64,000 nucleotides of DNA from Schmidtea nova (Eukaryota). The position numbers and the translations under genes are program-made. The notes beneath the pieces were generated by a model. That model saw nothing but the letters and a program-made list of their open reading frames with translations, searched no databases and was not told where the DNA came from. Positions 8,651-35,500 of this stretch are shown here, in pieces. Positions within the stretch are counted from its first letter, which is position 1. Each line of letters starts with the position of its first letter. Location of the stretch: contig CM097882.1 of NCBI GenBank assembly GCA_044892505.1, forward strand, positions 495,876,001 through 495,940,000, read 5' to 3'.

Positions 8651-9600
8651 TGTATGAGAAGATAGGAACATATATTAAATAAGTATTATAATAGACGAAG
8701 AATACTATTAAGAACAATTATATGTCGGGCTGGTAGAATCGAAAATAAACTTTGTTTAAATGCATCAAAAAATAAATACACATAAAAACAGGAGAATAAT
8801 ACATGAACGCATTAAGCACAAAAAAAGGCATCCAAACATATAGAATACTAAAGCGCAAATATAATTCTTACGAACCGCATTTCGTAAATCGGTCAAGATA
8901 GTAACGAAACTATAGAAAAGATGCACCTCAGAAGAGATCACACTAACTGAGTGCAGGTCAGATTTGCATACGGAGGACCACGCGAGAATTGAATAAAGAA
9001 GATTGTTGCTTGTATATTGAATACGAAAAGCATGATCAAAGAATAAAATCAGTATCAAAATAAAGAGAACAATTGATTAAAAATTGTCGAGGAAATCCCC
9101 ATTGAAATATCGTAAAAATAACAGAGATAGGAATAGAATTAAAAATTAAATTTGATTGTTTTAATAAATCTATTAACACCCGCAAAAAATGGATACAATA
9201 CATTTGCTGGTGTGTTGGTTAGATTTTCAACTGAGATCCTATTCGATTTTATACGTTAGGGTGATCTCGCCAACATAAAAACATCTCCCCGCTGACACCC
9301 ATGATGTATCCCTAACTACTCATAATGTTGGTACTGTGTCAACGTTGTGAAATGACAAGGCAGGTGAGCAACCTTGCGGCCACTATTCCCTTGGTTATTC
9401 ACGAATCCACCACTACCGTTAGAAGGTTTATGTGGTTTTATTTCGGTCCCTTCTTACTCGTTCTTTTTATCTCAGCTAGGGTAAGTTCGATTTCGGTATG
9501 TCCTGTAGCACAAAATGAATCCACTTCACTTAATCAGCTTTGGATTAGATTTCACATACGTACCTCAAACATTCAAGTCAAGCCATTTAACTAGTATACA
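8651..9600 (-). repeat. LTR-like repeat (~950 bp) directly downstream of orphan ORF
   Basis: The minus strand begins TGTATACT at 9600 and ends CTCATACA at 8651 (TGTAT...ATACA). It starts 7 nt after the stop of ORF 9608-10165, contains the conserved module at 9361-9452, and has a TATA-like/TCAGTT pair near 8970-8945. No matching partner LTR in the window. Confidence 0.55.
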
Positions 9601-9607
9601 TTTATTT

Positions 9608-10165
9608 TTAATTCCATAACACTGATGGATTTATTACAGCGATCAATTGTTTCTCAGTAAGACCACTTAGAAGGTCTACCTCAATTCCGACTCTCTCGGC
9701 ATATTCTCTTCGCTCTCGTCTTCGTTTCGCTCCTAACCGATTCCGACGCTTCGTTCGTTTGGAGCCCTCAGGTTGCGACATGTTCGTTGGAGTATTCGTC
9801 ATAGAGTTCGAATCCATATCGGTTTGTATACCCGTAGATACATTGGTAGTCTCTATCCAGCGATTGAAAGTGCTGGCTCGGATGAGGGGTCGCAACTGCT
9901 GCGTTATGAATTCTCTGGTGGATGCCCTCATGTAGTTGTTTAATTCCAGCTTTACGGCGGCAGTTTCTCGAGTTTGTTCTTCAGCTATTCGTTCGGCTGT
10001 ATGCTTGGCTTGCTGAATAAGCTTTACACGCTGCGGATGAAACCACGTGGTTTTCAACAGTTGATGTTCCTCCCCCAACTGTTGTAGCCTACTCTCGAGA
10101 ACTCTAATTCGTAACTTGTACTCCCTGGCTTCCTTCTTATAGTCACGAGCTTTATTCACATTCAT
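9608..10165 (-). CDS. Orphan 185-aa coiled-coil protein with Arg-rich C-terminal tail (LTR-element accessory ORF candidate)
   Basis: Uninterrupted ORF with protein-like composition, more GC-rich than its flanks. ATG is directly preceded by TTTCCTTCTTTTTAG (splice acceptor); tail KRTKRRNRLGAKRRRERREYAER. Confidence 0.65.
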   Translation of the reverse strand: MNVNKARDYKKEAREYKLRIRVLESRLQQLGEEHQLLKTTWFHPQRVKLIQQAKHTAERIAEEQTRETAAVKLELNNYMRASTREFITQQLRPLIRASTFNRWIETTNVSTGIQTDMDSNSMTNTPTNMSQPEGSKRTKRRNRLGAKRRRERREYAERVGIEVDLLSGLTEKQLIAVINPSVLWN

Positions 10166-11730
10166 CTAAAAAGAAGGAAACGAAGATCAATCTGTATTGT
10201 GGTTCATTTACGGTCTTATGTCCCCCCTCTACCCTCAAATGTTATGTCATTAGTATTCACGAAACTTTACTCCACTTTACTCTTTATCACACAGTCACCC
10301 ATTCATAATCAACATCACTCCTGGCATCATTCTCTCTAGATTAAACACAAGAGTTCTTAGTACAGCTATTTATTAATTTTAACACAACACATGGCGCCTT
10401 CACATCTAAATTTTCAGAAGAACTCCAATAGGTCTTGGTTAAATTGTCGGTCTGCTCGTCCTTTCCAATCCGGTTGATAGATCTCCGGGCACGGGTCCCA
10501 ACATAGCCGATCCTGATACGCAAAGACTTCCCATAGTCTTTCGTCGTCTGGCCCCAACTGAGTTTTCATGTTTACATTCCCTGGGGCATGAAGGTAGGGT
10601 TGCCTTTCTCCTGTGTGGGTACATCGGGGTTGATTCATTAGGATGTATCCGAGCTTGTAGAAGTCGGAACCTGTCATAGAATTTCCACTCAATATTCACT
10701 TGGGTTGGCTTTGGAGGTTCTCGAGCTGTATAAACCATTGGCTTCGGGCTCGACTCGGCATCTGTGACAATAGTGCCCATTCCGGATCGCCTTCCCATCA
10801 CACTCTTAATTGGAAGGACCCTATATTTCCTCGGGTGGCTGGGTCGACGTGGTCTCGCATCCAGGCTCTCAGGTGTCGTTCGGCCGACTGCTTTATGGCG
10901 GTGGGAATGAGTTTTGAATCTTCGAAATTCAATGTTTGGATAGCGTGACTCCGCCGTTGCATTCTTTGGTGTTTCATTTTCTAAATTATAGAGGCAATAA
11001 TTGAAGGGTCAGACCTTTCTCGCATCATTCCATCACATGTCAACAGTGGCACGCATTTTTTCACCATACCTTATTCAAACCCCATCATACGCTTTCGCCT
11101 TAATCATACAAACTCTTTCTTAAAATTATTACCTGGTGGAGTTCACTCATATTTGTTGTAGATTTTTGTCAAAATTCTGATCAAATGACAGTATTCCGTC
11201 GTATTTGATTATAACCACCCTACGCATTCATAATACTATCGGCTTGACTAGTGATTGGTGTACTACTACCACTCAGATCTAGAACGTAGATGTTACTTAT
11301 TTTTGTAGGCCTGATCGTAACTCTATATCGCATTGATCATCAGTCACTCATATTTTCATATCAATCATACACTAAACATTCAACAAACCTTGGTCAACTT
11401 GTACATCACTATAAATCGGGAAGGTCTTGTAGTTGATTGGATTCATACTCGATAACTTTTATTGTGGGGCTAACTCTGGGTGGATGATAGTGGGAACTCA
11501 TATCTCTAAATGCCGTACAGCTCGAATTCAGCCTTTAGCATTCTAGCTTCCCTCGTATTCTCGCATTTATTATGTTCTCTATTGTCATTTACGATGATCG
11601 AGTCTAGCCTTAACTCTGGCCACCTATCACTCTCGAGTCATCTGATTCTATTCCTCCTCTCATTCATTTTACTCGAACACGCTATGTGCACCCTTCCCCT
11701 TCCGAATTAGTTAGAACACCTATAGTCTCG

Positions 11731-11806
11731 CGGCATCAGCACCTCACATGAAAATGTGTTGTGCTGAGATGCCGAGTATCCCGTCAGATCGTTAGACCTT
11801 CGGGAC
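11731..11806 (-). promoter_or_regulatory. Structured leader (two adjacent hairpins) next to an LTR end
   Basis: CGGCATC-AGCAC-CT-CACAT-GAAA-ATGTG-TT-GTGCT-GA-GATGCCG (11731-11774), and a TCCCG...CGGGA stem enclosing AGGTC-TAAC-GATCT on the minus strand (11778-11806). Confidence 0.5.
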
Positions 11807-11826
11807 AAAACTTATGTATTTTAATA

Positions 11827-12587
11827 TGAGGGGTTAATAATAATAACAATAACAACTAACTCACGTACCTTTTATTTCACTCAGATTCTTCAATTACAAT
11901 CGTATTCTGATTCACAACTAGTAAGAAGGATAGTTTACTAGTGAAGTGACACTTGGTAAAAATAAATGACCACCATATTGATTTCACTGCTGTATTTATA
12001 CTATTTTGGCCTTGCCTTCTGGCCAATCAGAATTTAGCACGGTTGTTTATTTTCTAGCCATTTATTTTTATTGTTGTGCTTTTCTCTATTAGACCGGTGA
12101 GTTTGATATTTATTCTTTTATTTATGCTCCAGTGATTTTTATTTTATATTTAGTTTCTACATCTTGTCTGAGCGTTCCACCTCCGCATTTGTTCCGTTCA
12201 TAATTTCATTCTCGCTTCAGTAATTTTATTGTAATTTTTGCTATTCATTATTCTTTCTATCTCAGGCCTCGGTGGTTTTCAATTGCTCACTGGTAATTAT
12301 TGTTTTTTGTGCTTATTTTATTTGATGACATTTTGATAAATCTTATTTTCGCTTGGTTGGTTTAATACTCATTACACAGTTCTCTCATCTCGGTCTAGCG
12401 GTAAGTTCTGTGTTATTATTATTATTATTTGTATTGTTATGCTGTTTCTTTCAGGTTTTTCGTGCTTGATGATTGTTTGTCTTTCATTGATGGTTGGTAA
12501 TTTATTTTATTTTATTTAATTCTATTCTTATTTTTATGTTTAATTTGTATCTTTTTAAGATTGTTTTACGATTCACCGGGCCCAACA
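11827..12587 (-). repeat. LTR-like repeat (probable 5' LTR of a decayed element)
   Basis: Minus strand TGTTGGG...CCCCTCA termini; GTATAAATACAGC TATA box near 11990-12002; CCAAT box; AATAAA near 11870-11876. No TSD; followed by the structured leader. Confidence 0.55.
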
Positions 12588-13199: not shown

Positions 13200-13450
13200 T
13201 ATGTTTTTGGATAAGAAAATAGAAAGCTAGCAATAATTCAGCGACAGGACTGTAAAATATATATGTGCTTTAGTCATTCTATTGACAGCGGGAACCCAAT
13301 AAAGAGAATATAGTGAGGAGTAATTTTGACAACAAATCTTACCAACTTACTAGATTCTCGCCATTGCGAAACTATGTGTACACGAGTGAGGAAGTAAACA
13401 TTTATGCTGAGGTGTGGGTTGTAGTCATTCCTAGAAGCCAACTCTAAATT
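13200..13450 (+). repeat. LTR fragment carrying a degenerate copy of the conserved module
   Basis: Shares ATATAGTGAGGAGTA, ACTAGATTCTCGCCA and GGTTGTA..ATTCC.TAG with 21960-22190. Confidence 0.6.
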
Positions 13451-14545
13451 TCCATAACAACTCATACACAACAAGATATATAACAAAGCTATTAGAATGA
13501 TAAAAACCTATACATCCTTAACATCAGGGAGGCTGAGAATCGCGATTATAAGTGAAATAAAATCAATTTGAAATGAAAATATACCATTTTGAAATGAAAA
13601 ACTACGAAAATTAATTATAAAAATTAAATTGAAATGAAAAAAACATTAACTAGAATTAAAAATCCTATATACCAAAATTAGCAATTAATATGTTAGACTT
13701 ATAAAAATAAAGAAATTGTTGTTCGCAAAACAAATATTGTTGACAGAAGATGAGTGCTAACACTCAAAATGGAGAGCAACAAGAATTTACTAAATAAAAT
13801 GATTAATCTTTCAGTGAAACCACCCATCAGTCTTTGTTTAAGAAGAGTTTCATGGTTGTTATCGACTATTAAAAACGATAAAAACATTATATTATACAAA
13901 AGTAAAACAAAAGAAGCTGTAATATTTTGATCAGGTAATCATTTTGTATTTGTAATAAAAATTAAATTTATTAACCAGTTTCGACTTATTTATTTATATA
14001 AGATCATCAAGTTGATATTCTGTGAACCTCCGAATATGAAAAAAGTCTCGATAACCAATTTTGTTTCTCTTTCTTTGATTTCTTTAGTCTGTCGATTCGG
14101 CTGAAAGGTGCTTGGTCTTCCGGATTTTTCTAAATTTTCGCGATTACAACAATTTGAATTAAAATCAAGTTTGAAATTTGGTAATAAAGGAGTACCACAT
14201 ATTGTTTATGGCAAACCTGTACTAATAAACCTGTTTCATCTAGTAAAGATAAATAATTATTTAATGAATTCTAAATTTCTATTTTGCTAAAAACAATAAC
14301 TAAAAATAATAAAAATATAAATTTCAATTCGTAACTTACAACAAGAAGATCCTTTTATATCTTTTATATTTTATTTTATCTTGAATTTTAAACATTGTTT
14401 TATCGAAATTTGGTTTGTTTATAAAAATTACTAAAATCAAAAATATTTTTAACAAAGTTTATCATCGGTAAAGTCTTATTAGTTGAATAGTTTTATTTAT
14501 CAACAATTTTATATCGCCTAATTTTTTTTGAAAATAATAATTATT

Positions 14546-15196
14546 ATGTCTATCAATGAAAAGTATGAAGATATGTGGAAGATGTTAGAAAAATATAATT
14601 TTGATATTGATCCACAGTTACAAATCAATTTAAAATGCTTAATTTGTAAACATTTATTAGTCGATGCATGTTGTGGGCTTTGTTATTGTTCTTATTGTCG
14701 GAAATGTATAATTGCTTATTTGAATAGAAATAATAAGTGTCCTGGCAATAAACCTGATTGTGAAATTGAACAACTATCTATTGAAGAAATTATTGACGAT
14801 AATGCGGCTAACTTCAGAGTATCCGAAATAATCGTCACTTGTCCAGCAGATGGTTGTCTTTATCGCGATAAACTATTATCCATTTATAATCACTTTCGAG
14901 TTTGTGATAAAAAATCAATTCCTTGTCCTTTCAATGAGATGGGATGCATGAAGGCTGATATAAAAAATGATGAAATTTCAGTCCATTTGCGCAATGAAAT
15001 CTACGATCACAGTCAATTTTTAATTGATTGGATAAGGAATATGAAAAATGAGATGACAACGTTGATAGTTATTAAGCAGCAAGAAACGGCAGAAAATGAA
15101 TTAAAAAAGTTAGAGAAGATAATTAAAGATAAAATCGAGGAAGCGTTCAATTTCGAGGATGAACATCAACTAAATGAGGTAAAGATTAACTTTTAA
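14546..15196 (+). CDS. RING finger plus TRAF-type zinc fingers plus start of coiled coil (TRAF-like E3 ligase)
   Basis: LKCLICKHLLVDACCGLCYCSYCRKCI...KCPG (RING); VTCPADGC...NHFRVCDKKSIPCPFNEMGC...HL (TRAF zinc fingers). Uninterrupted 217 codons from ATG 14546. Possible splice donor GAG|GTAAAG at 15179; no MATH domain seen. Confidence 0.85.
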   Translation: MSINEKYEDMWKMLEKYNFDIDPQLQINLKCLICKHLLVDACCGLCYCSYCRKCIIAYLNRNNKCPGNKPDCEIEQLSIEEIIDDNAANFRVSEIIVTCPADGCLYRDKLLSIYNHFRVCDKKSIPCPFNEMGCMKADIKNDEISVHLRNEIYDHSQFLIDWIRNMKNEMTTLIVIKQQETAENELKKLEKIIKDKIEEAFNFEDEHQLNEVKINF

Positions 15197-15479
15197 ATCT
15201 TAATTATTACAATAATAAGTTCAAAAGTTATACAGGAGATTAATTTTTGAAAAATTATAACTTACTTTGTAGTTAAAAAAATAATATAATTTGAAAGTAA
15301 TCAAAATCATTTTAAAGGGAAAATTAAAATGTTAAAATATGAATATATGATAAATCATTTTATATGAGCATTCACTAATAAAGATGTTACAGCATCAATC
15401 AAATCATGTAAAATAATATATTATAACATCAATAAACCAAATTATTTATTCAAAAATAGTCATTTTATCATGTTTTGAA

Positions 15480-16030
15480 CATCTTCATAGCTTAGTTGGT
15501 TTAAATTCTTTTTTCCAACATTTCTCGATAAATCAAAGGACCTTTTCGTTCATGCTTGGCAATTAAACTTTCCTAAAAAACTAGTTTTGTCTAAATGTCT
15601 TGCGCGGAGGTCATTAAAAATACTTACACAACTAATTTTATCTCGAGAGCTCCTAATCCAATTAGCCATTTCTTCTGAAGTCTTTACAAAATTTCAACTT
15701 GTTTTTAAATTACCTTGTTTTCAATATAATTATTCATTTCTATTCGAAAAGTCTTTTGAAAAGTTTATTGATAGCAATGTTCAGAAATCATGATTTGGTC
15801 CACTCTCCTCTCATATCTTTCACATGATGAGTGCTAGCTAAATCACAAATAAATAACCCTCTTTCAACACCTATTAATTATTAGACTAATGGCAGGATCA
15901 TATCAATCCATTTTCTTATAATTGATTGAGTTAAACAAGCTTTCTCTGTTTCAAGAATATAAATTCCAGAAACTTGATTAATGATATTTTATTTGTCTCT
16001 AGTGACAATTGCTGGTGTTGAGATCAGGGA
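15480..16030 (-). pseudogene. pogo/Tigger-type (DDE_1) transposase remnant
   Basis: GIYILETEKACLTQSIIRKWIDMILPLV...ERGLFICDLASTHHVKDM...NFVKTSEEMANWIRSSRDKI, with stops and frameshifts. Confidence 0.7.
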
Positions 16031-16548
16031 ATGTGAGTGATTAATCGAAATAAATAATTATATATAATATAAATATACGTATTTGCTGCATGCGTTCGAA
16101 TTATTCAAAACAAAATTCTCATATAACAAGCTTTTATATAAAAAAGAAAATTTGCAATGTGCGTTTTACGGTAGCCTGATTTTACGGTAGTCGTGCGCGC
16201 AGTATCAGTTTGAATTTTTTATTTTTATATGTAGGGTAGGGTTGGGTTGGATTAGTGGCTCGTCTATACTTTGTTCAAAAGATTTCATATATCTTTCTGT
16301 CAGCGCACGATCATCATCTCTAGTAGGTTGGGCGATATTTCCCTCACTGTCAGTAATAGAATTTTTTCTTTATCGTAGTTACTGATGTAATCAAAAATTT
16401 ATTAGTCATCGGTTTAACAAATTTTTGGGGTGTCTCGCCTATTCAACCACATTGAAGAGTATATCAAAAATTTTAACTGCATCACCATCACGGTTAACAA
16501 GTTAACATTTAAACTCTCAGGTTGTTCGAACCATTTGTTTCACGTCCC

Positions 16549-16610
16549 AGCGCGAAACCGACGAGTCGAACTACCTCAGATCGGTAACCTATTAGGCCGT
16601 CTCCGATCTG
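16549..16610 (-). promoter_or_regulatory. Leader hairpin after LTR end
   Basis: 8-bp stem CAGATCGG/CCGATCTG (16577-16584 and 16603-16610); 35/46 ungapped identity to the leader at 61795-61840. Confidence 0.6.
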
Positions 16611-16629
16611 GTACGACGAAATAATTATT

Positions 16630-17579
16630 TTAGAACTGTTGGATTTGGAAAATATGAAGGGTTAACTAGAAATACTGAAAATCAAATAACTAATACAACA
16701 AATAAATTACTTGTAAAGTTTATTGGAATGAACAAATACAAAGCCGTAATCGAGTATAGTATCTTCCGAAAATTTACGCAATTAATTGTATAAAATAACA
16801 AAAAATTGTTTTGTCGTGGGTGTAGTTAAGTTAAGTTCAGTTTTGTAAGGTTAATCAAGTTAAGTTACCTTAAAAGTCTGAATTTGGCTGGTCTTTATAC
16901 TACATTGGTTGGTAGAATTAGCCAATCAGATTTCAACAGTTATTTTATTCGATAATTAAATTTTATTGGTTTATCCAATCCAAATCTGAATTTACCTGAT
17001 AATTAATTTGTTTTTATTTTTATTATTTTTATTATTTTACATGACAATAAAGCTACAGCATTGTGATTTATGGAACATATCTTAATTAAAAGTATGGTTA
17101 TGTGTCCAAAATGTGTCAATTTTGCAAAACCATCAAGCTATAAATTAATTCGTATCTTTATTCTTTACTATTACTCTTTACTATACTTATCCTTTTGCAA
17201 TTACATTACCCACTATAACGGTATGAAAGGGAAAGATAAACATCGTCTATATACCCGCAATCTCTCTCCGGGTGTGCGTTGGTAATGTATATAACGGTAT
17301 GAGTTCTTGGAGCAGGTGAGCTCTGTTACCAGAACTATTCCGCCTTTCTGGTTCTGTAGATCGATAGAAAGTCTAAACTATCTCATGTTTTATTCAGTTA
17401 TCTACTTTATTAGTAACGTTGTCTCTCGTGTACTTTCTAAATAACTTTTTCTTCCAACCACATCAATTATAATTCGCAAGAAACTCAACCAACTGCTTTT
17501 TAAACCGCTTCAAATCACTTAAAACAACTTCTACTAATATTACAAGATAAAACAAAAACACGTACACCCCAACTCCACA
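16630..17579 (-). repeat. LTR-like repeat (~950 bp) with conserved module
   Basis: Minus strand starts TGTGGAGTTGGGG at 17579; module at 17313-17375; GTATAAAG TATA near 16895; CCAAT box; followed by the leader hairpin. The lower boundary is approximate. Confidence 0.55.
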
Positions 17580-18079
17580 TAATTAAGCTATATACAAGAA
17601 CATTTCATCACAGCGGAATAATGTTAACACTAAGTCATCGTCAGTTGAATATACTAAACTGCTGCTTGAATGCCTTTTCTCGTTGTTACTTCTTCCCCTG
17701 ACTTGGTTTAGATCGTTTCTTGTTCTTGACCGCCTTAATAAATATAATAGTATTATTATTATCGTTATTATTATCGTTATCTGCATTATTATGATTATTA
17801 TTAATGTATTATTATTAGGGCTTGCAAATTTACCGACTTTTTCAATTACCGGTAATTCGGTAATTTATGTGGAAAAAACCGGTAAACCGGTAATTTACCG
17901 GTAATTTTGAGAGTATTTTAGTTAGTTGATATTTTATTCAAACTAATTACTTATAATATGTTTTATAAAATTCAAGTCAGTTATTTTATTAATTCATTCT
18001 TTTATTTTATTAATTCATAATCATAACATTATAATATATAAAAAAAAGTATAAACGCAAATTAGAAAAAAATTAAAACT

Positions 18080-20032
18080 TCATTTCAACTCTTGTTTTTG
18101 ATTAAAATACTGCCTTAAAAAACACATTGTGTTTAACGTGTTATCATTTAAGCTCGACCTCAACTTGGTGCAGATCAGACTGGGTGCTGAAAACGCGCGC
18201 TCCGATTCGACACTTGTCGCTCGAACAGTCAACAACATTTGAAATGCTTTCTCTAAATATTTACCTCGGATGTTCTGTTCTTGGAAAAAGTCCATTTCCT
18301 TTTTAATAATGTTTGCTAATCCTTTACCTTTAGGTGATTTTGGGCGAGTACTTTCCAAATTCGATTTATTCATCTTCTGCTGAATTGTAAGTTGCAGCTT
18401 TTCTTTCATTGTTAACGCTGGCGATGCTGATGTTGACGGAGTTGCACGCTCATCTGAAGTACATGTTTCTGAATCTGAAATTTCAGTTTCAGACTCTTCA
18501 TTTAACGTAAGCCGTTCAATTAATTCAACGATTTTTTTTATTATCAATGGTTTTGTTGTTTTATTGAATATTTCATAATTATCATCGTCATTTCTTATTC
18601 TTACATTAATTACATTTGGATCATGGAGATAGTGCAAAATATCTGCATAAATGTTTCTCCTTTCTTTAATACGTATAATTAGAGATTCTTTAAGTTCTTT
18701 ACTTAGAAGTGTGTTTTGCACACTAAGCTCATCTAACATAAATTTCATTGTTATATCTGAAACATAAATTAACGTCTTCTCGACATAGTGCTTCCACAGC
18801 AAGTTTTACTGGTTGCAATGATGCAATTATATTTTTAAGTAAAACAACTTCATTTTCGCTGAAACTTAACTCAGATTTAATGTCGATTAAACTTTTTCTT
18901 ATTGCACTTTCAACTTCGCAGAATCTCTCTAGCATTGCACAAAGACTATTCCATCTGGTTTTTGAGTCTATGATCAAGGATAGCTCTTTGTTAAATTCTT
19001 CCTTAATATGCTTCTGTAAATTGTCGTTCTTTGTAGGGGATCTGCGAAACAATACAACTTTTCTAATTTTTGTTATTAGAGGACTTATTTCTTCATGTTG
19101 AACATCAATACAAGTGGGTACCGTATTTATTACTTCAAAGCCCACTTCATCTTCTTCGGAAATGCCTTCTTCACTTTCTAAATCGGTTTCTGTTTCATCC
19201 ACAATACTTACTTCCTCTATATGAATATCGCTCATGTCTTTTTTACGATATAAAACATTAATGACGGCTAGCTGAATGCCGTGTGCTAAACACAATTGAT
19301 GATTAGCATTAATCAACGAACCTACTTTCTTCATCACCGAAGCACCATCAGTTGTTATTGAAAAAATGTTGTCTAAAGTTAGTTTGAACTCATTTAACTT
19401 ATTTTGCAACAGCGTTATACATTTATCAGCTGGCATCGAACCATGTACTCTCACAAGACCCAAGTTCCAAAAGCGGTCATTTCCATGAACGTTTATGTTC
19501 ATATATCGTCGATTCTTAACAGACGTCCACTCGTCAAACGTCAAACTGAATACACTATTATTAGCTTTTCGGTTGGATAAATCTTCAACCACTTGTTTGC
19601 GAATTTTATCCCCATAGTCCATTACAATTTTTTTGATCGTATGGGAAGATCTTGGTACTTCTTTATTATATTTAGCTTTAATTAGTACTCGGATATCGTA
19701 GGATGTGGCAACTCTATAAAACGGTATATTATATTTTGCTGTCAAACGCGCGAGAACAGCTGGAAGTGAATCATCAACCTTTTTTATAAAGAAATTTGAT
19801 ATATTATTGTTTGTAGTGCTAGCAATGACTTTGTTTGTAATTTGACTAGATGATGCCATATCACTCTCGTCATCTTTTCTCTTCAATAGATTAATTTTTG
19901 CTGAGATTTAAGATGGGCATGCAAACCGCTAGTGCTACCACCAACACATTTAATCGGTTTCGCACAACTATTGCAGACGGCTTCATTCTTATTTGTTTCT
20001 TTGAAATAGGTCCATATTAAATTTGTACGCAT
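18080..20032 (-). pseudogene. hAT transposase (BED finger, DDE, C-terminal dimerisation domain) with two frameshifts
   Basis: MRTNLIWTYFKET..AVCNSC..IKCVGGSTSGLHAHL (BED); LTFDEWTS, ITTDGAS, CLAHGIQLA, TRWNS, ATSVESERAFS. Frameshifts near 19900 and 18770. Confidence 0.93.
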
Positions 20033-20291
20033 GATGGCTAAAATATTTTTTGGTTTTAAATAACGAATAAATTAGTATTTTTTGTATTACCTTACCTTTA
20101 TTAAATTTTATGAGACGTTCTATTATATTAAAAAAAAATTCGATATATTTATTATAAATTATATACTGCAACAATTTATGTATTTCAATTTTAACAGTTA
20201 AAATTGTTCAATATTTCGAAATTCCACGAAAAACATTCGTTTCTGTCAGTATATAACTTGAATATTACAACCAAATAAAAAATTTCTACTT

Positions 20292-20357
20292 CGGTTTGAG
20301 CGAGCACTTAACACGGTTTGAGCGAGCACTTAACACGGTTTGAGCGAGCACTTAACA
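20292..20357. repeat. Three perfect tandem 22-bp repeats inside the hAT 5' region
   Basis: CGGTTTGAGCGAGCACTTAACA x3, with no spacers. Confidence 0.95.
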
Positions 20358-20504
20358 TATATATGTATAGAATAATAGAATATTAAGCATGAATATTTCA
20401 CGCATTTGCATACACAACAAGAAACAAAAATTTGTTTTATATTTACGTAGGTGCGAGTGTGACTTGTGACCACTGAACAGAAGTGTGAAACTTTTTAAAA
20501 TTTT

Positions 20505-20653
20505 ACAATATTTTTCGTTTTGTTCCGTACATACTACTTTATAAATAAAGTCGAATTTCTTTATTATAGTATAATTATTAATTTTAAATATTAAATTCAA
20601 CTATTTACTTATAAAATAGTATGCACGGAACGGAACAAAACGATAAATATTGT
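20505..20653. repeat. Inverted repeat / small foldback insert inside the hAT
   Basis: ACAATATTTTTCGTTTTGTTCCGT..ATACTA versus TAGTAT..ACGGAAC(GGAAC)AAAACGATAAATATTGT. Confidence 0.65.
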
Positions 20654-21959: not shown

Positions 21960-22190
21960 CGTAGAGTGATTAGATACATAAGTCCTTCTATCGGGAGCAG
22001 GGACTCGAAAGAGGGGATATAGTGAGGAGTAGTTTAGTTAACGAAGCTCATCTGTTCACTAGATTCTCGCCACCGTGTACAATACCAGTATAGCTAATTA
22101 GGGAATAACTATAGGTACATGAGGTAGCCTAATCTTTATGATGGACTATGGTTGTATAATTCCCTAGAGGCAATAATCATTTTTTATCAC
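21960..22190 (+). repeat. LTR fragment with conserved module, truncated by gap
   Basis: CCTTCTATCGGGAG...GATATAGTGAGGAGTAGTTTAGTTAACGAAGCTCATCTG...ACTAGATTCTCGCCA; homologous to 13271-13363 and 34839-34913. Confidence 0.65.
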
Positions 22191-23781: not shown

Positions 23782-24059
23782 GTATTATTGTTAAAAAGTA
23801 TGTTTTTAGTTATATTAATATTATTATCGCTGGCATTATTAGTATTATTATTGTTATTATCATTATTATTACTATTGATATTATTTTGGAATGATTAATA
23901 TTATTATTTTTGGTATAATTAGTGATAGCGCTATTGTTATTATTATTACCATCATTACTATTATTGTTGGTATTAATATTGGTATTATCGTTATTAGACA
24001 AAAATTGTGATTTTTATAAATTATTATTATTGTAGCAAATTATGACTTATTATTATTAC

Positions 24060-25245
24060 CAATATTATTAAATATGATAATAATAATTTAAAAATAGCTA
24101 TTAGAAAAATAAAATTAGGGAAAAATTGGCTAAACATAATACTTAATTCGAGAACGAATTTCTTTAATGGGGGAGATATGTTAAGGATACTTAAATAATA
24201 AATTAAATATTGGCACAAATAAATGATTAGGGGAAAACGAACAGGATAAATGATGTGATATTTAGAAAAACGAAAAATGAGGTTTGAAGAACAAAACATG
24301 AGAAAGGAGATGACAGTAAAACAAAGGAAATCGAACAATTAACGAAGTAAGGTCATTCCTAATCAAAAAGTACAAAAAGGCAAAAGGAATTTCGAAAACA
24401 AGGAGAAAATTATACAGTGGATTTCGGTTAATTGGGACACCGTATAATTAGGACAACTGTCTTATTGGGACATTTTCTTAAGTCCCGAAACAAATATGCA
24501 GTATAAATTCTTATAAATTTGCTATAAGATGCACATTTTGTATATTTGGGACACCTGTATATTTGGGACAAATTTTCCTGTCCCGTTGTGTCCCAATTAA
24601 CCGGAATCCACTGTATCTTGACAGTCTGTTAAAGATATCTGAATGATAGGAGAAAATTCGGAATAACAAAAAAAGCAGGACATATCTAAACAGTTGTCAG
24701 AGATAAGATGAGAGAAATAAATTTGTTTTAAGTATCACACAATTTAACGCGCAATAAAAGCAAAAGTCAGTGCAGTTGAATCAAAAGAAAAATTCGAGTG
24801 GGACTACAAATTTGTGTAATGAAGTGTTGTCGCAAGAATTTGTGAGAGAAAACTTATTGAGAAATTTATTGTGAAACGTATCGAGAGAAACTTATTGTGA
24901 AATTGATCGAGAGAAATTTATTGAGAAAAATTTGTTGAGTCGAATTTCAAGTCAAAGCAAACAAAGCAATTAGTTGGTTACCCACTGTTGAATCAAAATC
25001 AGTAGCTAGTGGTTGTTAGATGGATATTATACATGAGTGCTATTTTTCACATAAGTATCGTAATAAGAACTTTATAATTGTCTCATATTGTTGATTGATG
25101 GGACTAGTTTAATATTGAAACTAGTTGTGATATCAATAAAGATTCCTGTTGTAATTGTTATTTTATTGATTAATAAAGCACGCATTTGGAGTCAGAAATT
25201 TGATTGGTAACTTTTAAATTTTACCAACAACCCAATAACCCAACA
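24060..25245 (+). repeat. Solo LTR-like repeat, copy 2 (contains MITE)
   Basis: Shares AGGTCATTCCTAAT, AGTAGCTAGTG, GTCGTAATAA, TCAATAAAG.TTCC, TTTGGAGTCAGA.ATTTGATTGGTAACTTTTA and CCAACAACCCAATAACC with the other copies. Confidence 0.7.
24415..24613. mobile_element. Tc1/mariner-superfamily (pogo/Tigger-like) MITE, 199 bp
   Basis: 26-bp TIR CAGTGGATT(T/C)CGGTTAATTGGGACAC with one mismatch; TA duplication; internal GGGACA repeats. Confidence 0.93.
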
Positions 25246-25922
25246 AATACATTTAACAGTTAATTTCTATACACTCATTTCAGAATTTAACTCGTAGTCG
25301 ATAAATTAGATTACTTCGTTAGCCGCCTCGGTTTATGATTTAGAAATACTATTAAACTTCGGCTGATAAATTCTTCCTTCGGCAGATTCTTCGTACGATC
25401 GTACTGGGACATATCTATTATTGTACTCGGTATATTCTGGCACACATAGCGTCGGCGCGCATGTGCTTGGGAACTCTTTTGATGATCAGGGATAAAACTT
25501 CTTATCATTGGGCAAGAAAACTCCAATGTTCTGACGTTATTTTCATTCAAAATCTCTAGGATAAAAGTAGCCCGAATTTAATTGAATCTACATTCCTTAA
25601 TAATAGTTAAGATAGAAACATTGATAATGATAACAATAATAATTATATTAATATAGTACTAATATCAATCATTTTTTCAGTATTTAATTAAATTGACGTA
25701 GTTGAACAAAAGTTTATAGAACGTTTTTTCATTTCATTTATTTTGTTTTAAAAATAAATTTTATTTTTACTAAATCTTTATACTTTTCATTAATTTTAAC
25801 TAACCTAATTTATATTAGTTTTTAACTTTTGATTTTTTCTCATTTAAGCTATTAAAATTAAAATAATTAATTATAAAATTCTTTGAATTTTTCTGAATTT
25901 CCTTATTTTTAATGTATTTTGT

Positions 25923-25954
<32 letters not shown>

Positions 25955-26083
25955 CGTGTTTCTTCGTGTTTTCTTCTTGCTTCTTTTTCAAGTTAATTCT
26001 TATATTTGTTTTAAGTATTTAAGTATTATGTTTCTTCATGTTTACTTCTTGCTTCTTTTTTCAAGTTAATTGTTTTAAGTATT

Positions 26084-26966
26084 TGGTTGAGGATACCTAA
26101 ATAATAAATTAAAAATTATCACAAATAAATAAAATGATTGGGGGGAAATGGACAGGGTAGATAGTGTAATGTTTTGAAATTCGGAGGAAAGAAGAGCAAA
26201 AATTGTGAAATGAGAAGATGGCAGCGAAATAAAAGAAATCGAACAAATAGCCGGAAAAGGTCATTCCTAATTTACAAGTGTAAAAAGGGAAAAGGAATTA
26301 CAAAATCTAAAACAAAAACAGGATGAAAGTTCATATCTTGACAGCTTGTCAGAGATATCAGGATTGCAGGAGAAAAAGTCGGAATAACAAAAAAGGGAAG
26401 CATGGCATATCTCGACAACTGTCAGAGAAAAGGCATAAGCTACGGAGAATGCTAGAGGCAAAAATGGAAAAACAAATTTATCTCAAGTATCACAAATTTG
26501 ACGAATTATAAAAGGAAGAAACAATAGTAGACCAGGGAGAAGATAGTGTGAGATTCAAAAAGGAAATCCGCGAAGAAAATTGAAATTTAGAAGAATCAAA
26601 GTGTATTATAAGAAAACGTGAATTAAAGGAAAACTTCAGAAAATTGTAGTGAATTTAGCAAACTAAGAAATTAATTGAATAAGAGTCAAAGTTTATTAAG
26701 CCAATTGGTCTGTTACCCATTGTTAATCTAAATCAGTAGCTAGTGATCGTTAGACGGGAATATTGTACACGAGTGTTATTCCTCACAGAATGTCGTAATA
26801 ATCACTGTATAATTATCTGTCATATCATTGAATTGGTGAAACCAGCTGTGCTATCAATAAAGGTTCCGGTTATTAATTGATATTTTATTGATCAAGTAAA
26901 CACACTTGCAAGAGGCAGAGAATTAATTATTAAATTTTAAGTTTCACCAACAACCCAATAACCAAA
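26084..26966 (+). repeat. Solo LTR-like repeat, copy 3
   Basis: Same conserved blocks as copies 1 and 2. Confidence 0.7.
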
Positions 26967-28365
26967 AAAATTTTCTTGTGTTTTTTGTTTTTGATGTTTG
27001 TTCAAATACTTTAATATAATTCTTGCGCGGTATCTATGTGCTGTTATCGTTTGCTTTAAACAAAATTAGTTGGCTTCAGTTTTTATCCAACAATTTTGTC
27101 TCATCGAAAGTTTTGACATAACCTCTTTAAATCCCATGGAACAAAGACCATGAGTCATAACAAAGAGTATTACGCAGCTTCTATTAGATTCATGACTCAC
27201 CACGATGACTTATTGCTTCAGGGGTAAGTAATTCCATTGTGGGCCAAAGAATATATCTTACTACTAAAGAGCATAAAATAAGCACTGAATTAAAATTTAA
27301 AAGATTTAATAAATATGAATTAACAATGAAATTGAGTATTTCTACGTTATTGGTTTTAAATTTTCGATTATTTAATAAATAAATTTAAATGACTTATTTA
27401 CCTGACAAAAGCCAATAAGCTCTTAATGGGCCTTTATTGAAATTTAGAAAACAAAAAATTTTCTACAGTAAATTTAATATTAGATGTGCAGTACAGATCA
27501 AAAAAATCAATAAAAAGGATTGCCTATAATGAAAGAATTATAATTATACATCAAAACTCATTTAATTAGAATCACCTTGAACTTTTTTAATACTATGTAA
27601 TCGGGACATACATTTTTTTACATTGGTTTTTACAAACAATATTTCAAAAGTTTTTTTGGCTTCATTTTCATTATTTCAAATCTAGAATCATGAAGATTTT
27701 ATGTTTCTTATAAATCTGAGTAAATACTGAAATATTTTACATTTTCGTTATGTATTTGTAGGTGTCAAAGTGGCGGTCTTCAACATTTTACTACTTTTAG
27801 TCAAACTGAAGAATAGAGATAACTAATTATCAAAAATTATTCTCAATAACAAAAACAATTAGTAGATTAAACTTTTAAGTTTTTTGGGATAAATTTTGGT
27901 TTGATGTGAAAAAGTTTCTTTAACTTTTTGCAAGCATTAAAAAATAATATTAATATACAAATGGTCGACTTTAGTCGATTTAAGCGTAAAAGGGTTCAAA
28001 ACAAAATTTTTGTTATGTAATTTTTTAAAATAATAATGTAAATAAATAAAAAGTCTTATCTTTTATGATGAAGCACGCGAATTTCTTGGGTTCTAAGAAT
28101 TTCGACAGGAATCAGAGCTTTACATGGCTCCTCGCATTCATTTATTTAATAAAACAACTCAACAAAATACAAATTTTATTTTCGTTGTAATTGAATTAAA
28201 TCCATAAAAATTAACAATTAATCTCGATACAATTGAAAATTGAGCAAATCTTGACTAAGTTTACTGATGTTTAATTTTCCTTAATGACAAATGATGCTTT
28301 AGTTCTATTCAATCTCGTTTCAATTGAGTTTTTGTTAAGAATGCACTTTTACACTCTGTTGTTTA

Positions 28366-29463: not shown

Positions 29464-30150
29464 TGTTGGGGTTGTTAAAATAAATTTAAAATACACAATA
29501 TGAAAATTGGAAAAATAATAATTAAAGTTCAAACATTAATTAAAATTTATAAAATTCAAAAATAAAGATTTAGAGGCTGAAACTAGTATGGGAGGATGCC
29601 TAATGATGAGACGAATTCAAATATTGGTATGTAAAATTAAAAAGGGGCCCCAGAAAGAAATATTAAGAAAATACAAATTAATTAAAATAATTAATTACCT
29701 AATGGGAAACCCAGGCGTCAACAAATCTATTAATTAAAAAATAAACTGACTAATTGAAGAGTGCCCGGGTAAAGAAGCCGCAAACACACTTAGCGGCAAC
29801 TGCCAATTTAATTAATCATTTGACAGTTTAATTAAGGTGTGACAGAACTGAGCGACAAGGTACTATATAAACGGATAGCAATTTGCCGAAATTGCCAGTG
29901 TAGTCGAAGCAAAATTTAAAAACTTGAGTGAGGATCGGAAAGGACGAAAAGGAAGTTTTAACGGTAATTGCAAGTTAGTGTTGATTTATCAATTTTCCCT
30001 GCTTACAAGAAAGGGACATCTTCAATTGGGTCTTCTTCCCTAACGCAAGGAAATTGTAGAGGATATTATACTTTGTAACTGTGTAATTAAAAGTGTGTTT
30101 AACTAATTTGAAAATAAATATTATTGTGTTGAGTTGAAACTCTCAGTAAA
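29464..30150 (+). repeat. LTR-like repeat upstream of gag remnant
   Basis: Starts TGTTGGGG; TATATAAA near 29864; AATAAA near 30114. Confidence 0.55.
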
Positions 30151-30152
30151 TC

Positions 30153-31588
30153 AATATGGAGGTGATCTGGTGGAATTCGTTGACTTTATGACAGACTATA
30201 ATATGTATGCTATGGCATATGGATAGAGCCAAGCGACAATGGTGCAAAGTCTGCCACTGTTTTTAAAAGGAGCAACAAGGGAAGTCTGGCAACAAATAGA
30301 TAAAAGAACAATTGCTAATGACTGGACAAAACTGAAAGATGCCTTAGTCGCAAAGTTAATTGGAGGAAATATATAACGGATAATGTGGCAGTAGTTCTAT
30401 AATCGAGTGCAAAAATCAGACGAATCGGTAAATGAATTTGCGTACGACTTGACAACTCTTGCAGATAAAGCATTCTAAGTAAAACCGAAACAGATTGAAG
30501 TGGCAAAGCAGGTAAAGGAATTGTTACAAGACCAGTTGTTAACTAAAGTCTAAAAGGAGATCAAAAAAGCCTTGTTATGTGGATTTCAATAAGTTTGATG
30601 AATTGATCAAAAAGGCGATGAAAATCGAGTGGAATTTGAAAAGCTCACAGCCAAAATCAGAATCGTTTGCCATCATTAATGAACCCAGAGAAAGATCCAT
30701 AACTCCAGTCAAAAACAATCGGCTTCAGCAATCAATTAGTCCATCACCAACGTTTAGACAAAGGTTTGAGTCGAATAAATCAACAAATGTTCAAATTGAT
30801 GAAAAAGAGAAGCCAATTCAATGCAGCCATTGTCAACGGATAGGACATCATGTCAATCAATGTTGGTTCAAAGATGTATCTCCAAAAAGTCCAACTCCAA
30901 TCCAGTGTGATTATTGTCAAAGTATGGGACATTACAGCAATCAGTGTTGGTCTAAAAATAATGTTCAACGAAGCCCAAAACGAATGTGGCCAGATTGGTT
31001 GAAGGGTAGCGGTGAGAAAAAGTTTTAATAAAATAAATATTAAAGATCAGCGAACTAATGATAATGTGCAATGCTACAATTGTGGAATGAAAGGACATGT
31101 CTCACGGAACTGTTTTGCTAGATCGAGGTCTTCATTGCCATCCCCACAAAGAGATAAAAATGAACTTTCAAAGCCAAATTCAATGCCATTCATGTAGAAG
31201 CTATGAACACATGGCTAGATTATTCCCGAGAAATGTCGACAAATTTCAGAAACCTATATTGAAAAAATCAATTAGATTCCAAAATGATAAAATGCAGATA
31301 GACAATGTGGCTTTTGTTCAATCAGATGATTTCAATGAAAAGATTGAAAATCAATTGAAAGAAATGGGTCGACGTTTGGATCGTCTAATGTCCAAGTTCG
31401 AATCCGATGATGAATTGAATAATCACATGATGTATGGATCGCAGCAAGATATGGCGGAAGCGGAAACGAAAGCTGTAAGTACAAATGACGATCTTGAAAG
31501 TGAAAAAGCTACATTGATGATAAAAAGACTTGAAAAATTACTAGAAGCCAGTGCGGAAGAATCATCTAAAATATTGGTATCGATATAA
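30153..31588 (+). pseudogene. gag: Ty3/Gypsy gag remnant with four zinc knuckles
   Basis: YGGDLVEFVDFMTDYNMYAMAYG*SQATMVQSLPLFLKGATREVWQQ...FYNRVQKSDESVNEFAYDLTTLADKAF (capsid domain, five stops in about 145 codons). Knuckles: CSHCQRIGHHVNQC, CDYCQSMGHYSNQC, CYNCGMKGHVSRNC and a degenerate CHSCRSYEHMARL. Confidence 0.88.
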
Positions 31589-34010
31589 AAACTGAAGTCT
31601 AATGTCGTTGAGTATGAGGAAATTGAAAGGCAGGATTAATTTTTGTGCTAATTATTATCAAATAAATGTAACAAAGAGATGAAATTAAAGAATTTATGAG
31701 AAAATTTGAAAAATATTTTCAGGAAAATAAATGGTTAGATTTTATTTTTATTTATGTTGTTAATAAAAGTGATAAAAATGTGATTACGTGTCGCTGAGAA
31801 GCCTATGATAGCGTAAAAGATTTAAAAAGGGAGACTAAGAGAGAAATGTAAAGGATGGGTGGTCGAATTAAAATTTAAAAATAGAGATTTAGAAAATTAT
31901 GGTTATTTAATAGACTGTGGTTTCATACCAGGAAATAAAAATGAATTACAAATAGCCAGTATGATGAGTAACTGTGAAATGATAAAAAGTGATTCGATGG
32001 AAATAGTAAGGGGGCTATCTGAAGTTTATATATTGGTGACGAAAACGAAATTAATGAAATAGAAAAATTAATTGAGGAATCTGAATTTTGGCAAAAAGAA
32101 AATTTATTTGAGGATTTCCACAATTTTCAATAGTAATATCTCTAAATTAATAACATAAATTTTACTGTTAATCCGTAATTCGATAAGTCGCTATTACATC
32201 TGACAAAAGCGGAAATTCATGCAAGAAATGTCATAGAAATTCGCAACCCCCTATTTACAAAACTCACCTGAACTATCGGCTAAAAATCCAGAATCCCCAA
32301 TGGTTTTACTTTGTACCAAATCATGCATGCCCACCTCACCGGTAATTTTAAAAGTTCTTATCAATTGTAGTCATTATGTAGTTGTTTCGATGTACAATAA
32401 ATTTTACCCAGTCGGATAATGTAATCTCCAGGATTTACGATAACAAACCTCAACTCAGATCAAAGTGTAAAAATTAGATTTAAAACGATATAAAACTTCA
32501 AACGGTATGCTGGCGTAGGATGAAATACCTACCAAAGTAATGCCAAAATAATTATACTGAATGAATATAAAAGAAAAAGGTAGTCATAAAATTTGATACA
32601 TTATAAATGAAAAATTGGAAAATTGAGAACTCGATTGAAAGAATTTAACTAAAAAACAAAATTTATTTTTCCAAGAATTATATGAACTAGTATTTATTTT
32701 CCGAAAATATCTGAGAACAAAATTTTTCTTAAATTAAAAATTTTATCGGGAATTAATTTTATAAAAACTCTTAAATAAATGTAAAATATTACCATAAAAT
32801 TACTTGGGAATTAAAAATACCAGCTAAAAAAATCTCTTGAATAAATATAAAATATTACCAGGAAATTGTTTGTGAAATAAAAATACCAACTCAAGAAATT
32901 TAATAAAATCAAAAGGCATCTTGATCAAATAAAATCAGATATAATAGTCATAGATTAATGTTTCTTCGGAAATCCACGAGAACACTCCCCGAGAATGGGG
33001 GTTCAATTCGAAAGAATGCGAGATTCCCTCATAAATTTTTGATAATGATTCCATTCATGAGGATCAACAAGAAAAGTCAAATTGTTGATTTCTTTTCTTT
33101 TTCTTTGCTAAGGCTTGAGTTCCGTTTTTTGAGTTGATGGCAACTTTGCTGAGCCATGAATGATCCGGGTGATGCTAGGAGTGATTATGAGAGATTAAAC
33201 AGTAAAAAAAGAAAAATAAGATCTTACGTTTTTGTCCAATTTGAAGATGGAAATCTCCGTTACTAAAAATATAATAATGAATCAATAAATTTCATTATGT
33301 AATAAAGCATACTATAATGAATTCAACCAATAGGGATTGATTATTTTTTGCTCCCCAGTTATATAGTTATGCTTCTCGTTGGGGGAACGCCGATATTTCT
33401 GGATGAAACTAACCCGAGACGGTGTTTCCTAGTGTAACATTCTGGTTGAAACCTAAAGTAAAATTTAAATCTCCTAAATTCAGATAAATTTTTTTTAACT
33501 TGAAAAAGAAATATATTATGAGAAAAAATTGACGTCGTTACCGTCGCTAATGTCTCGGCGATGATTTAAATTCATTGCATAAAATTTTGATAAAATCTTA
33601 AAATAAATTTGAAAATAACAAGATAGACATTAGGTATAAGGGATAAGTGAAATTTTAGTTAAATTTACCAACACAAAAATATACAAATTTTAAAAAATCT
33701 TGAAAATAATAAAAATTTAGCTAAAATCAACAGACATCGTATACCCAAATATATGTGATAATCAAAGATTTTTCGATCCCCGAATTGAGTTTGTGATGAT
33801 GTTTGAGTATAAGCTTACAACTAAAATGACTGCGAAAACTCCTGTGTTTTGAGATAATATTGTGTATAATAGTTGTTTGTGAAAAATCAATAAATTTTCA
33901 CCGATAAAATTATTTCATCTTACTAATTTTAAACTGAATATTTAAAATTAAATTATAGTGCTAAATGATGGCTTAAATGTGCTTTGAATGTGTGATTTTA
34001 GATTTCAGAA

Positions 34011-34565
34011 ATGAACCTTGACCAAAAATTTGAAGAGATGCACCGGTTGATTTTGGAAAATGCCCGACATAATCGCCGGGTGGATCAGTGCTTCGCCGAG
34101 CTGGAAAAGGCAAAAGCATCCAATTCCGACGCTTTGCAAATCATGACCTCCAGGATGGAGAAATTTCGAGCGCGGTGCGGAGATATGGAGTCGACCTGGT
34201 CCGACAAGGAGACCGTCGACAGATTAAAGAAGCAGAACCAGATGCTTCTACAACAGGCTGCAGAGGACGCGAAGCGATTACGCGCATGCCGTGTTACGAT
34301 GCGAGAGCAGGAGCTCTTGATCGAAAAATTGAGGGTGGATAGTGACATCATCGCTGCCATCTTGCCGAAATCATCGTTCCCACCCCAAGAGCTGTTCCCA
34401 GTAAGGGTCGAAGAAGAGATCCTGACACCTCCGGTGCCAGCGAAATTGACACGGCAGAAACCCAACAAAGGAGTGAGGGCTCGACGAAGACGTCGCCAAG
34501 AAGCGCGATTGCTGGGGCAAATACGCAAAGAGTCCTCAGAAGTTATAGACATTACGTTATTGTGA
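34011..34565 (+). CDS. Orphan 184-aa coiled-coil protein with Arg-rich C-terminal tail
   Basis: Uninterrupted and markedly more GC-rich than its flanks. ATG is preceded by TTTTAGATTTCAG-AA (splice acceptor); tail KPNKGVRARRRRRQEAR. Confidence 0.7.
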   Translation: MNLDQKFEEMHRLILENARHNRRVDQCFAELEKAKASNSDALQIMTSRMEKFRARCGDMESTWSDKETVDRLKKQNQMLLQQAAEDAKRLRACRVTMREQELLIEKLRVDSDIIAAILPKSSFPPQELFPVRVEEEILTPPVPAKLTRQKPNKGVRARRRRRQEARLLGQIRKESSEVIDITLL

Positions 34566-35500
34566 TTTGAATCGAACAATAATATTTTATCTTGTAGATA
34601 ATGTTGTATTTATTACCTTATTTTGTAGTTTATGTTTTTTTGTTGATGACATTAAAGGTTTTTCTTTTGTGTTTGAAATGTTTATTTGTTTGAATGCGTG
34701 AAGAGAATAAATTGATAAAAAACTGACACTCATTTTTGTGAAGAGAATCAATCTGGGGTTCAGTAGTAAATTTAATTCGATATAACTTATGATTTTTTTT
34801 TGAAAGCAAATAATGCATACAAGGGACAAAATGGGCATTAAACCTTCTATCGGTAGCCCTTGGACCCAGGAGATATTCGGTCAATCATAGTTTCGTATTG
34901 ACGACGCTCACTGATTGCGAATACCCACCCATTTGTTGCATTACCAACGTTACATTGTGACGGACAACAAGATAGCTAATCTAATGTTTTATGTGTTGAG
35001 TTGTTGATGTGAGCCATAGCAACGTCAAGGTCATATTGACGATCAACAACCCACCACATGTATGGTAACTATTCATATGTGATTTAATTAAAACAACTAG
35101 GTTAATATATTATTTAAACAAGCATATTTATGTTAATTTACCTGTAATTTAATCTGTGACAAAAACAAAGATGGATTAATATATAGAATATAATTATTGT
35201 ATAAATGATTACTTAATTTTCTTTAAACAATGATTTTTTATAATAAAGAATAATTCTAATAAGATAATTTTTTATAATATAAAATCCAATAAAAATCAAA
35301 TTTATTTTTATTGATCCATGACCGATAGCAACTAAGAAATAATATATAAGCTGTTTACTTTTTCAGTGGAATACCCCAAAAATTGGGTAAGTTCTGATCA
35401 TAAGTTCTGATGCACTGGTAGCAGTTTAAATAGAATTGGCCCACGACAGCTATTCACTACGAATTTAATTCACGACACTTGTATATAACTTTAAAGTTAT
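34561..35500 (+). repeat. LTR-like region downstream of orphan ORF with conserved module
   Basis: Module at 34821-34913; TATATAA at about 35345 followed by TCAGT at about 35365, with spacing similar to 8651-9600 and 16630-17579. Boundaries are approximate. Confidence 0.45.

Follow-up and report, generated by a model that had tools for sequence, protein, structure and literature searches.

Within a 64,000-nt window of the Schmidtea nova genome (assembly GCA_044892505.1, contig CM097882.1, positions 495,876,001 to 495,940,000), an AT-rich stretch (19-45% GC per kb) with many mobile elements, lie five copies of a short conserved module, designated A to E. All five fall within 26 kb, A and E on the minus strand and B, C and D on the plus strand (Table 1). 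A preliminary description, made from the letters alone, had taken the module for a conserved cis-element in five otherwise divergent repeats resembling long terminal repeats (LTRs). The module survey covered the window, to which every copy count given here refers.

The results showed that the 18-mers at 9413-9430 (minus) and 34839-34856 (plus) share 17 of 18 bases, and that the variant sites at 21984, 13275 and 17362-17371 (minus), as well as the degenerate CTTACC at 13338, lie where they had been described. The 18-mer pattern, with up to three mismatches allowed, matched three times in the whole window, two of the matches being exact (A and B), compared to 0.09 expected. When an nhmmer profile was built from four copies, the fifth was recovered in every case (E = 2.6e-3 for A, 2.2e-4 for B, 7.5e-15 for C, 2.2e-8 for D and 6.6e-7 for E), while the best match outside the five copies had an E value of 0.6. 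The accompanying words proved less uniform: AAGGGAC precedes the module in A (15 nt before) and B (11 nt before) and is absent from C, D and E, and the downstream GCTCA word, previously placed at 44-57 nt, starts 55, 61, 60, 60 and 48 nt from the first loop base in A to E, respectively, the position in D being degenerate (CTTACC).

The possibility that the module is no more conserved than its surroundings was examined within the window. Four of the 10 module pairs scored above all 100 shuffles and eight of the 10 were equalled by at most four of 100, whereas the 600-nt flanks exceeded all shuffles in one of 10 pairs upstream and one of 10 downstream. The module therefore exceeds its flanks, which are mostly unrelated by the shuffle test, and the repeats are otherwise divergent as first described. 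C and D form one family, aligning over 200 nt at 64% identity, so that the five copies represent about four independent lineages.

A covariance model run over the window found its five source copies only, with the next best match at E 0.58 and no sixth full copy. A descriptor written post hoc gave six matches compared to a mean of 1.07 (maximum 4) in 100 shuffles; its sixth match, at 12255-12316, was missed by the covariance model. A possible partial sixth copy at 62455-62410 (minus), matched by neither nhmmer nor the covariance model, has a UAGU..GCUUA mini-hairpin and a CAATTCCAACGCAC word resembling that of E, and sits ~600 nt before a copy of a second structured motif (see below). The module itself comprises a folded core of ~95 nt plus a 3′ word, CAKTACCAAC, and at ~95-135 nt overall is longer than first described. 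The 3′ word, absent from the preliminary description, has four exact matches in the window, three of them behind modules.

The conserved words turned out to be the loops of a common two-hairpin RNA fold, which is absent from the preliminary description. In hairpin 1, a lopsided internal loop separates an outer stem of 3-5 bp from a second stem of 3-4 bp, which carries a T-loop-like loop of UUCUA plus one or two variable bases; UUCUA is invariant and variation is confined to the bases that follow it. A purine-rich linker leads to hairpin 2, in which an outer stem of 5-15 bp is followed by an internal loop in which (R)U faces CAY, a helix of A-U, G-C and U.G pairs (AGU/GCU) and a variable tip. 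The outer stem of hairpin 1 is weak in copy C. Copy D is a decayed relative of C, its core altered to UAAU/UCUUAC.

Table 1. Coordinates of the module copies and associated features in the 64,000-nt window
Feature	Position	Strand	Description
Copy A	9347..9436	minus	Hairpin 1 9436-9409, loop UUCUAAC 9424-9418; hairpin 2 9402-9347
Copy A, hairpin 2 details	RUAGU 9386-9382; GCUCAC 9369-9364	minus	GCAA tetraloop
Copy B	34833..34923	plus	Hairpin 1 34833-34859, loop 34845-34851; hairpin 2 34874-34923
Copy B, hairpin 2 details	RUAGU 34887-34891; GCUCAC 34906-34911	plus	Exact 1x3 U/CAC internal loop
Copy C	21976..22068	plus	Loop 21986-21992; small GAAA hairpin 22004-22013; hairpin 2 22013-22068; GCUCAU 22046-22051
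Copy D	13266..13359	plus	6-nt loop 13277-13282 on 4-bp stem; hairpin 2 13304-13359
Copy E	17310..17380	minus	Loop 17369-17363; short hairpin 2 17345-17310; RUAGU 17338-17334; GCUCAC 17321-17316
3′ extension word CAKTACCAAC	9327..9336 (A); 34939-34948 (B); 17278-17287 (E)	minus (A); plus (B); minus (E)	~28 nt past GCUCAC; looser in C
Orphan open reading frame (ORF) A	9608..10165	minus	185 aa; predicted helix 2-110, disordered linker, Arg-rich helix 144-158
Orphan ORF B	34011..34565	plus	184 aa; predicted helices 3-117, linker, Arg-rich helix from 153
TATA-like word and donor-like GGTAAGT	35340..35392	plus	~500 nt after B; putative function
CCAAT- and TATA-like words and donor-like site	16860..16930	minus	440-510 nt after E; putative function
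Second structured motif	16609-16522; 61840-61754; 11800-11720; about 10655-10620	minus	From comparison within the window

Several lines of evidence support this fold. It is the unconstrained minimum free energy structure of copies A and B, and RNAalifold run without guidance finds hairpin 2 (12 pairs, nine of them with double changes). In a 22-pair model, 77.7% of 103 cells were paired compared to 62.7 ± 2.7 in shuffles, with none of 500 shuffles as high, and slid controls reached 32-44%. The covariation check proposed in the preliminary description, run on the five window copies, showed compensating double changes in 12 of the 22 pairs compared to 4.7 in shuffles, again with none of 500 as high; both results lean towards the fold because the structure was derived from the same five sequences. 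Arms paired preferentially with their own partners, the diagonal ranking second of 120 assignments for both the outer and the inner arms of hairpin 2 and fourth of 120 for hairpin 1. The complementarity of the outer arms of hairpin 2 gave single-copy p values of 0.014, 0.036, 0.058, 0.0015 and 0.60 in A to E, respectively. The motif strand folded better than its complement in all five copies, and the U.G pair is retained in four. G.U pairs outnumber C.A mismatches by 16 to 1, a ratio that is partly inherent in the folding method and carries little weight. By these measures hairpin 2 is well supported and the proposed hairpin 1 less so.

Since stems of differing sequence still pair amid flanks that cannot be aligned, selection appears to have acted while the lineages diverged. 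The earlier proposal of a conserved cis-element is thus upheld, with the compensating stems and the strand bias pointing to an element that acts as RNA on the motif strand. Taken together, these results make it very probable that the module is a compact, strand-specific RNA fold under selection in the 3′ or terminal region of a retroelement lineage.

The surroundings of the copies were compared for promoter- and splice-like sites. A TATA-like word, expected ~450-500 nt downstream of the module from the preliminary description, lies ~470-510 nt downstream in B and E and weakly in D; in A the distance is only 171 nt, and copy C is truncated by an N gap. The site after B partly resembles 13772-13826 after D (73% over 56 nt), and a later acceptor-like site and the second hairpin motif are also found downstream of E. 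This order of features is suggestive of a terminal repeat that holds a promoter and a short intron. The assignment of the repeats to LTRs, and of the module to their U3 region, is putative: candidates for TG..CA ends with a target duplication numbered one or two per copy, compared to a mean of 0.85 at 60 random anchors, and no direct repeat pair that would represent a second LTR was found in the window for the module copies. LTR ends may have been lost from old fragments.

As described before, copies A and B are each preceded by an orphan Arg-rich ORF, whose stop codon lies 170-270 nt upstream of the module. ORF A has a pyrimidine tract and an AG immediately ahead of its ATG, resembling a splice acceptor, and an acceptor-like AG lies just upstream of ORF B. 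The frames were fully open in 1 of 2000 shuffles (ORF A) and 4 of 2000 (ORF B). The layouts given in Table 1 come from single-sequence structure models with predicted template modelling (pTM) scores of 0.23 and 0.27. The co-occurrence of ORF and module was checked in the window and holds at two of the five copies; no such ORF was found within 900 nt upstream of C, D or E, an absence that is not clean since C lies at the N gap and E at a hAT insertion. ORFs A and B were not significantly alike (BLASTP E value 27; Smith-Waterman score of 51 equalled by 22, 43 and 86 of 1000 shuffles), and their best local alignment is in the Arg-rich segment.

No homologue of ORF A was found among 1.84 billion representatives, a set used for ORF A only, and sequence searches returned none for ORF B; Pfam and PHROGs gave nothing credible for either. 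Atlas matches of ORFs A and B (0.77 and 0.90) were of low recognition and serve as leads only, and a fold search made with the ORF B model alone gave no match at E ≤ 0.001 among 87. A Leu-rich export pattern, in its commonly quoted form, is absent from ORF A and occurs once in ORF B, at residue 7, a long way from its Arg run; an upstream exon could supply an export signal to the protein. A site with CCAAT, TATA and donor-like words at 12045-11860 (minus), 1.7 kb upstream of ORF A, could provide a first exon that is joined to the acceptor of ORF A. Similar GGTAAGTTC donor-like words at 9480-9495 and 12400-12412 (plus), on the strand opposite ORF A, hint at antisense splicing. A Deltavirus-like rod, considered because of the ORF size and the Arg motif, was rejected (56-61% paired, no single long-range diagonal, no Pfam match).

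Two fixed, non-complementary loops carried on variable stems suggest a tertiary contact. Given the T-loop-like sequence of the UUCUA loop, the resemblance of GCUCAY to a known cleavage strand and the usual presence of ribozymes in retroelement terminal repeats, self-cleavage was ranked first, and we tentatively regard the module as a possible self-cleaving RNA in a retroelement terminal region. We infer every step beyond the secondary structure. The UUCUA loop would fold as a T-loop, capture a base flipped out of the internal loop and thereby pack the two hairpins together, and Mg2+-dependent self-cleavage would then occur at GCUC/A within the internal loop. The action would be like that of the twister-sister ribozyme, except that the T-loop hairpin is joined on the opposite side. 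Cleavage might free the element RNA from longer or read-through transcripts, a role proposed for hammerheads in Penelope-type terminal repeats.

In twister-sister, the cleaved strand GCUCAU is paired to AG in a 3x3 loop, and a 7-nt T-loop binds an adenosine of that loop (bioRxiv 10.1101/2020.11.26.399451; PMC7373991); a G and a C of the 5′ loop strand contact the scissile phosphate, these being G36 and C37 in the LINE-1 twister-sister (TS)-like ribozyme (PMC11620745). T-loops contain a U-A trans pair five bases apart, usually with two bulged bases, and intercalate a base bulged from another loop (PMC4551918). Ribozymes are described as common in retroelement terminal repeats (PMC4209133, PMC8557442, PMC6431247, PMC8501958, PMC4918200), and Penelope repeats as containing a promoter and an intron in the 5′ untranslated region (PMC4209133, PMC8557442).

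The module resembles twister-sister (PDB 5T5A, 5Y87) in having GCUCAY with the same A-U and G-C pairs beside the internal loop in four of the five copies, D being decayed, in the 3x3 loops into which A and E fold, in the 7-nt T-loop-type hairpin with U, C and A at loop positions 1, 3 and 5, and in the variable peripheral stems. It differs in the 5′ loop strand (AAU, AGU or CAU compared to GCA), in the T-loop sequence (UUCUA compared to UGCAA) and in its animal repeat context. The minimal TS-like ribozymes of LINE-1 and OR4K15, one of which is in a retrotransposon, share with it the GCUCA strand, the opposite UAG and a simple stem-loop-stem core, and the U before AG in the module matches U38 of the LINE-1 ribozyme; the module, however, has no equivalents of G36 and C37 and carries an extra conserved T-loop hairpin and a 3′ word (PMC11620745). 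Like the hammerheads of Penelope-like pseudo-LTRs and retrozymes (PMC4209133, PMC8557442), the module would be a small structured RNA in a terminal region with a promoter and a short 5′ intron, both putative here. In contrast to them it has no hammerhead core, no nearby reverse transcriptase (RT) or GIY-YIG domain and no detected tandem or inverted terminal repeat.

A number of results weigh against self-cleavage of this kind. None of the five copies has both the G and the C that touch the scissile phosphate, the internal loop is 1x3 in B, C and D, the inner helix ends in a plain hairpin without the three- or four-way junction of twister-sister, and the T-loop hairpin lies 5′ of the outer stem. 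The fourth base of the T-loop-like loop is U, a position usually occupied by a purine. No ribozyme model of Rfam matched the whole window or copies A and B searched alone, and nothing meaningful was returned for the module. Since the G and C at the phosphate, the junction and an Rfam match are all missing, the module, as judged from its sequence, is not a member of the twister-sister class. Moreover, if the module sat in U3 of a true LTR element, cleavage there would remove the 3′ end of that element.

The fold rests on five sequences, two of them close kin, to which the 22-pair test is itself partial. Whole-module folding z-scores were weak in four copies (-1.0 to -1.4; -2.7 in D), imposing the model cost 0, 1.1, 9.3, 4.2 and 6.0 kcal/mol in A to E, respectively, and the closing pair of hairpin 1 had a probability of at most 0.26 in all five copies in longer windows. 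Arm complementarity was not significant for hairpin 2 of E (p 0.60) or for hairpin 1 of C, D and E, and the loop-to-loop spacing ranges from 31 to 43 nt. As to the link with a retroelement, no RT, integrase or gag match adjoined any copy in the regions scanned, which included 10170-11850, 31590-34000, 15200-16700 and 60400-61800, and neither Penelope RT nor GIY-YIG remnants were found beside any copy there. A broken gag with zinc knuckles lies at 30150-31588, 2.4 kb before ORF B, and its membership in the ORF B element is putative.

Known ribozyme folds were also considered. None of the 10 core-like hammerhead sites in the window, sought as CUGANGA (or UUGANAA)...GAAA, falls inside a module. 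The topology of ribozymes resembling that of hepatitis delta virus is a nested double pseudoknot with P2 closing after the catalytic C; no P2 partner was seen on inspection and no Rfam match was obtained. A twister fold was ruled out by inspection and by the lack of an Rfam match.

A doubtful alternative to self-cleavage is a non-catalytic RNA signal for a host protein or for the RT or Gag of the parent element, serving export of unspliced RNA in the manner of a constitutive transport element, stability, localisation or packaging. In that case the internal loop would serve as an architectural C-loop and the T-loop would make a folding contact, and the RNAalifold result, the covariation and the own-arm pairing would be explained equally. 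A C-loop has a long strand N-C-A-Y-Y and a short strand with A and zero to two bulged bases (PMC4551918). Copy B has exactly this form, with long strand UCACU, short strand A-U-A and one bulged base, whereas A and E have an A.C closing pair and C and D carry G where the crossing pair needs A, so that the exact C-loop occurs in one of five copies. The U-N-N-N-A loop with one or two variable bases, in turn, is found in all five, with U at its fourth position. C-loops and T-loops are generic modules that occur together in non-catalytic RNAs such as T-box leaders (PMC4551918, PMC3664808); they are building blocks and do not define a family. The three copies without an ORF fit a ligand from elsewhere, but no transport or packaging element of Rfam was matched and no candidate ligand was identified.

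It is unlikely that, as suggested at the outset, the module serves as an RNA response element for the orphan Arg-rich protein, which would oligomerise via its long helix and export or stabilise unspliced element RNA as in the Rec system of human endogenous retrovirus K (HERV-K) with its Rec response element (RcRE). The position of the module behind non-random ORFs in A and B, the common layout of the two ORFs, their best alignment in the Arg-rich segment and their acceptor-like starts are consistent with such a pair. However, the ORF is present at two of five copies, ORFs A and B are not significantly alike, LTR termini are at background level, and Arg runs can be mere nuclear localisation signals. 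RcRE and Rev-like elements span several hundred nt, whereas the module is a compact fold of ~100 nt for which protein binding is putative, no export signal follows the Arg run and no provirus is present. RcRE lies in U3, so that only its 3′ copy is transcribed (PMC6916052), and the likeness to HERV-K consists in the placing of the RNA element, behind an Arg-rich ORF that is probably spliced and ahead of a promoter-like site (PMC6916052, PMC3856414). Rev-like proteins are described as having a Leu-rich export pattern (PMC3856414), and none follows the Arg run here.

The DNA enhancer that had been offered as the simpler alternative, a cluster of transcription factor sites upstream of a promoter, would account for several short fixed words and for their distance of ~470-510 nt from the downstream TATA-like words of B, D and E but leaves the compensatory and own-arm pairing, the retained U.G pair and the strand bias unexplained, does not fit the 171-nt spacing in A, and is very improbable. 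Equally improbable is a neutral relic that now lacks a function and is simply the part of a shared ancestral repeat that has decayed most slowly: D is visibly decayed, the sample is small and the whole-module z-scores are weak, yet stems of different sequence still pair amid mostly unalignable flanks. Individual copies may nevertheless be dead now.

Other features of the window were also noted. In the second recurring structured motif, an ATCGG..CCGAT stem encloses a CTAA(T/C) loop and a long hairpin comes next; the copy near E and that at 61.8 kb share 73% identity over 88 nt. The motif lies behind a promoter-like site and a short intron, the latter putative, and has no hammerhead core. A perfect 64-nt inverted repeat at 41222-41356 holds at its centre, on both strands, a core like that of a minimal hammerhead, with a decayed copy at 20915-20947. 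The core belongs to the U3-A8 type and has one unpaired base ahead of stem II, a form described for Penelope-like elements (PMC4209133); with a stem II of only 3 bp it is a candidate only. The Gypsy-type element at 601-6045 (222-nt LTRs scored as 100% identical, gag zinc knuckles, RT-RNase H-integrase, stops between frames) is the only complete-looking LTR element in the window and is without the module. A Tc1 transposase lies at 6574-7410 and an ORF with RING and TRAF zinc fingers at 14522-15196, and a hAT element at about 17817-20783 has inserted into an ATT repeat a little way upstream of copy E. Three diverged units of ~1.7 kb (~74% identical) occupy 22800-27000, with recurring TATCTTGACA..TGTCAGAGATA palindromes and a CCAAT-like word.

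Searches were extended beyond the window. Bacterial and archaeal genomes gave 11 pattern matches, the best whole-model score being 8.4 bits and covering hairpin 1 only; these matches were taken as chance because eight of the 11 lie in a fully open frame and none scores over the whole model. Copy A had no match in phage records. No description of the motif was found in the literature at the level of titles and abstract openings, most subscription journals and repeat databases lying outside this scope, and the element family may already be catalogued without its RNA fold. In the literature searched, twister-sister-type cores appear in animals only as two minimal human examples, and no Rev-like regulatory pair outside retroviruses was found described. 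These results indicate that the module is a real, covarying RNA motif without an Rfam family and with a putative function, and the presence of five copies in 26 kb suggests a high copy number genome-wide.

Decidedly doubtful is the fuller proposal that the module represents a novel class of small ribozymes that cut themselves, or else a twister-sister fold rewired so that a tRNA-type T-loop comes from the opposite side, and that its carriers are animal retroelements of an unclassified family that contains an intron and has as its sole recognisable gene one for an orphan helical Arg-rich protein, which may bind the RNA and gate its cleavage. The chance of a new ribozyme architecture is small. 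Few classes of self-cleaving RNA are known, and a covarying fold combining a T-loop with GCUCA in divergent animal retroelements would, if true, be such a new architecture; if the Arg-rich protein binds the module, the two would form a Rev-like regulatory pair outside retroviruses.

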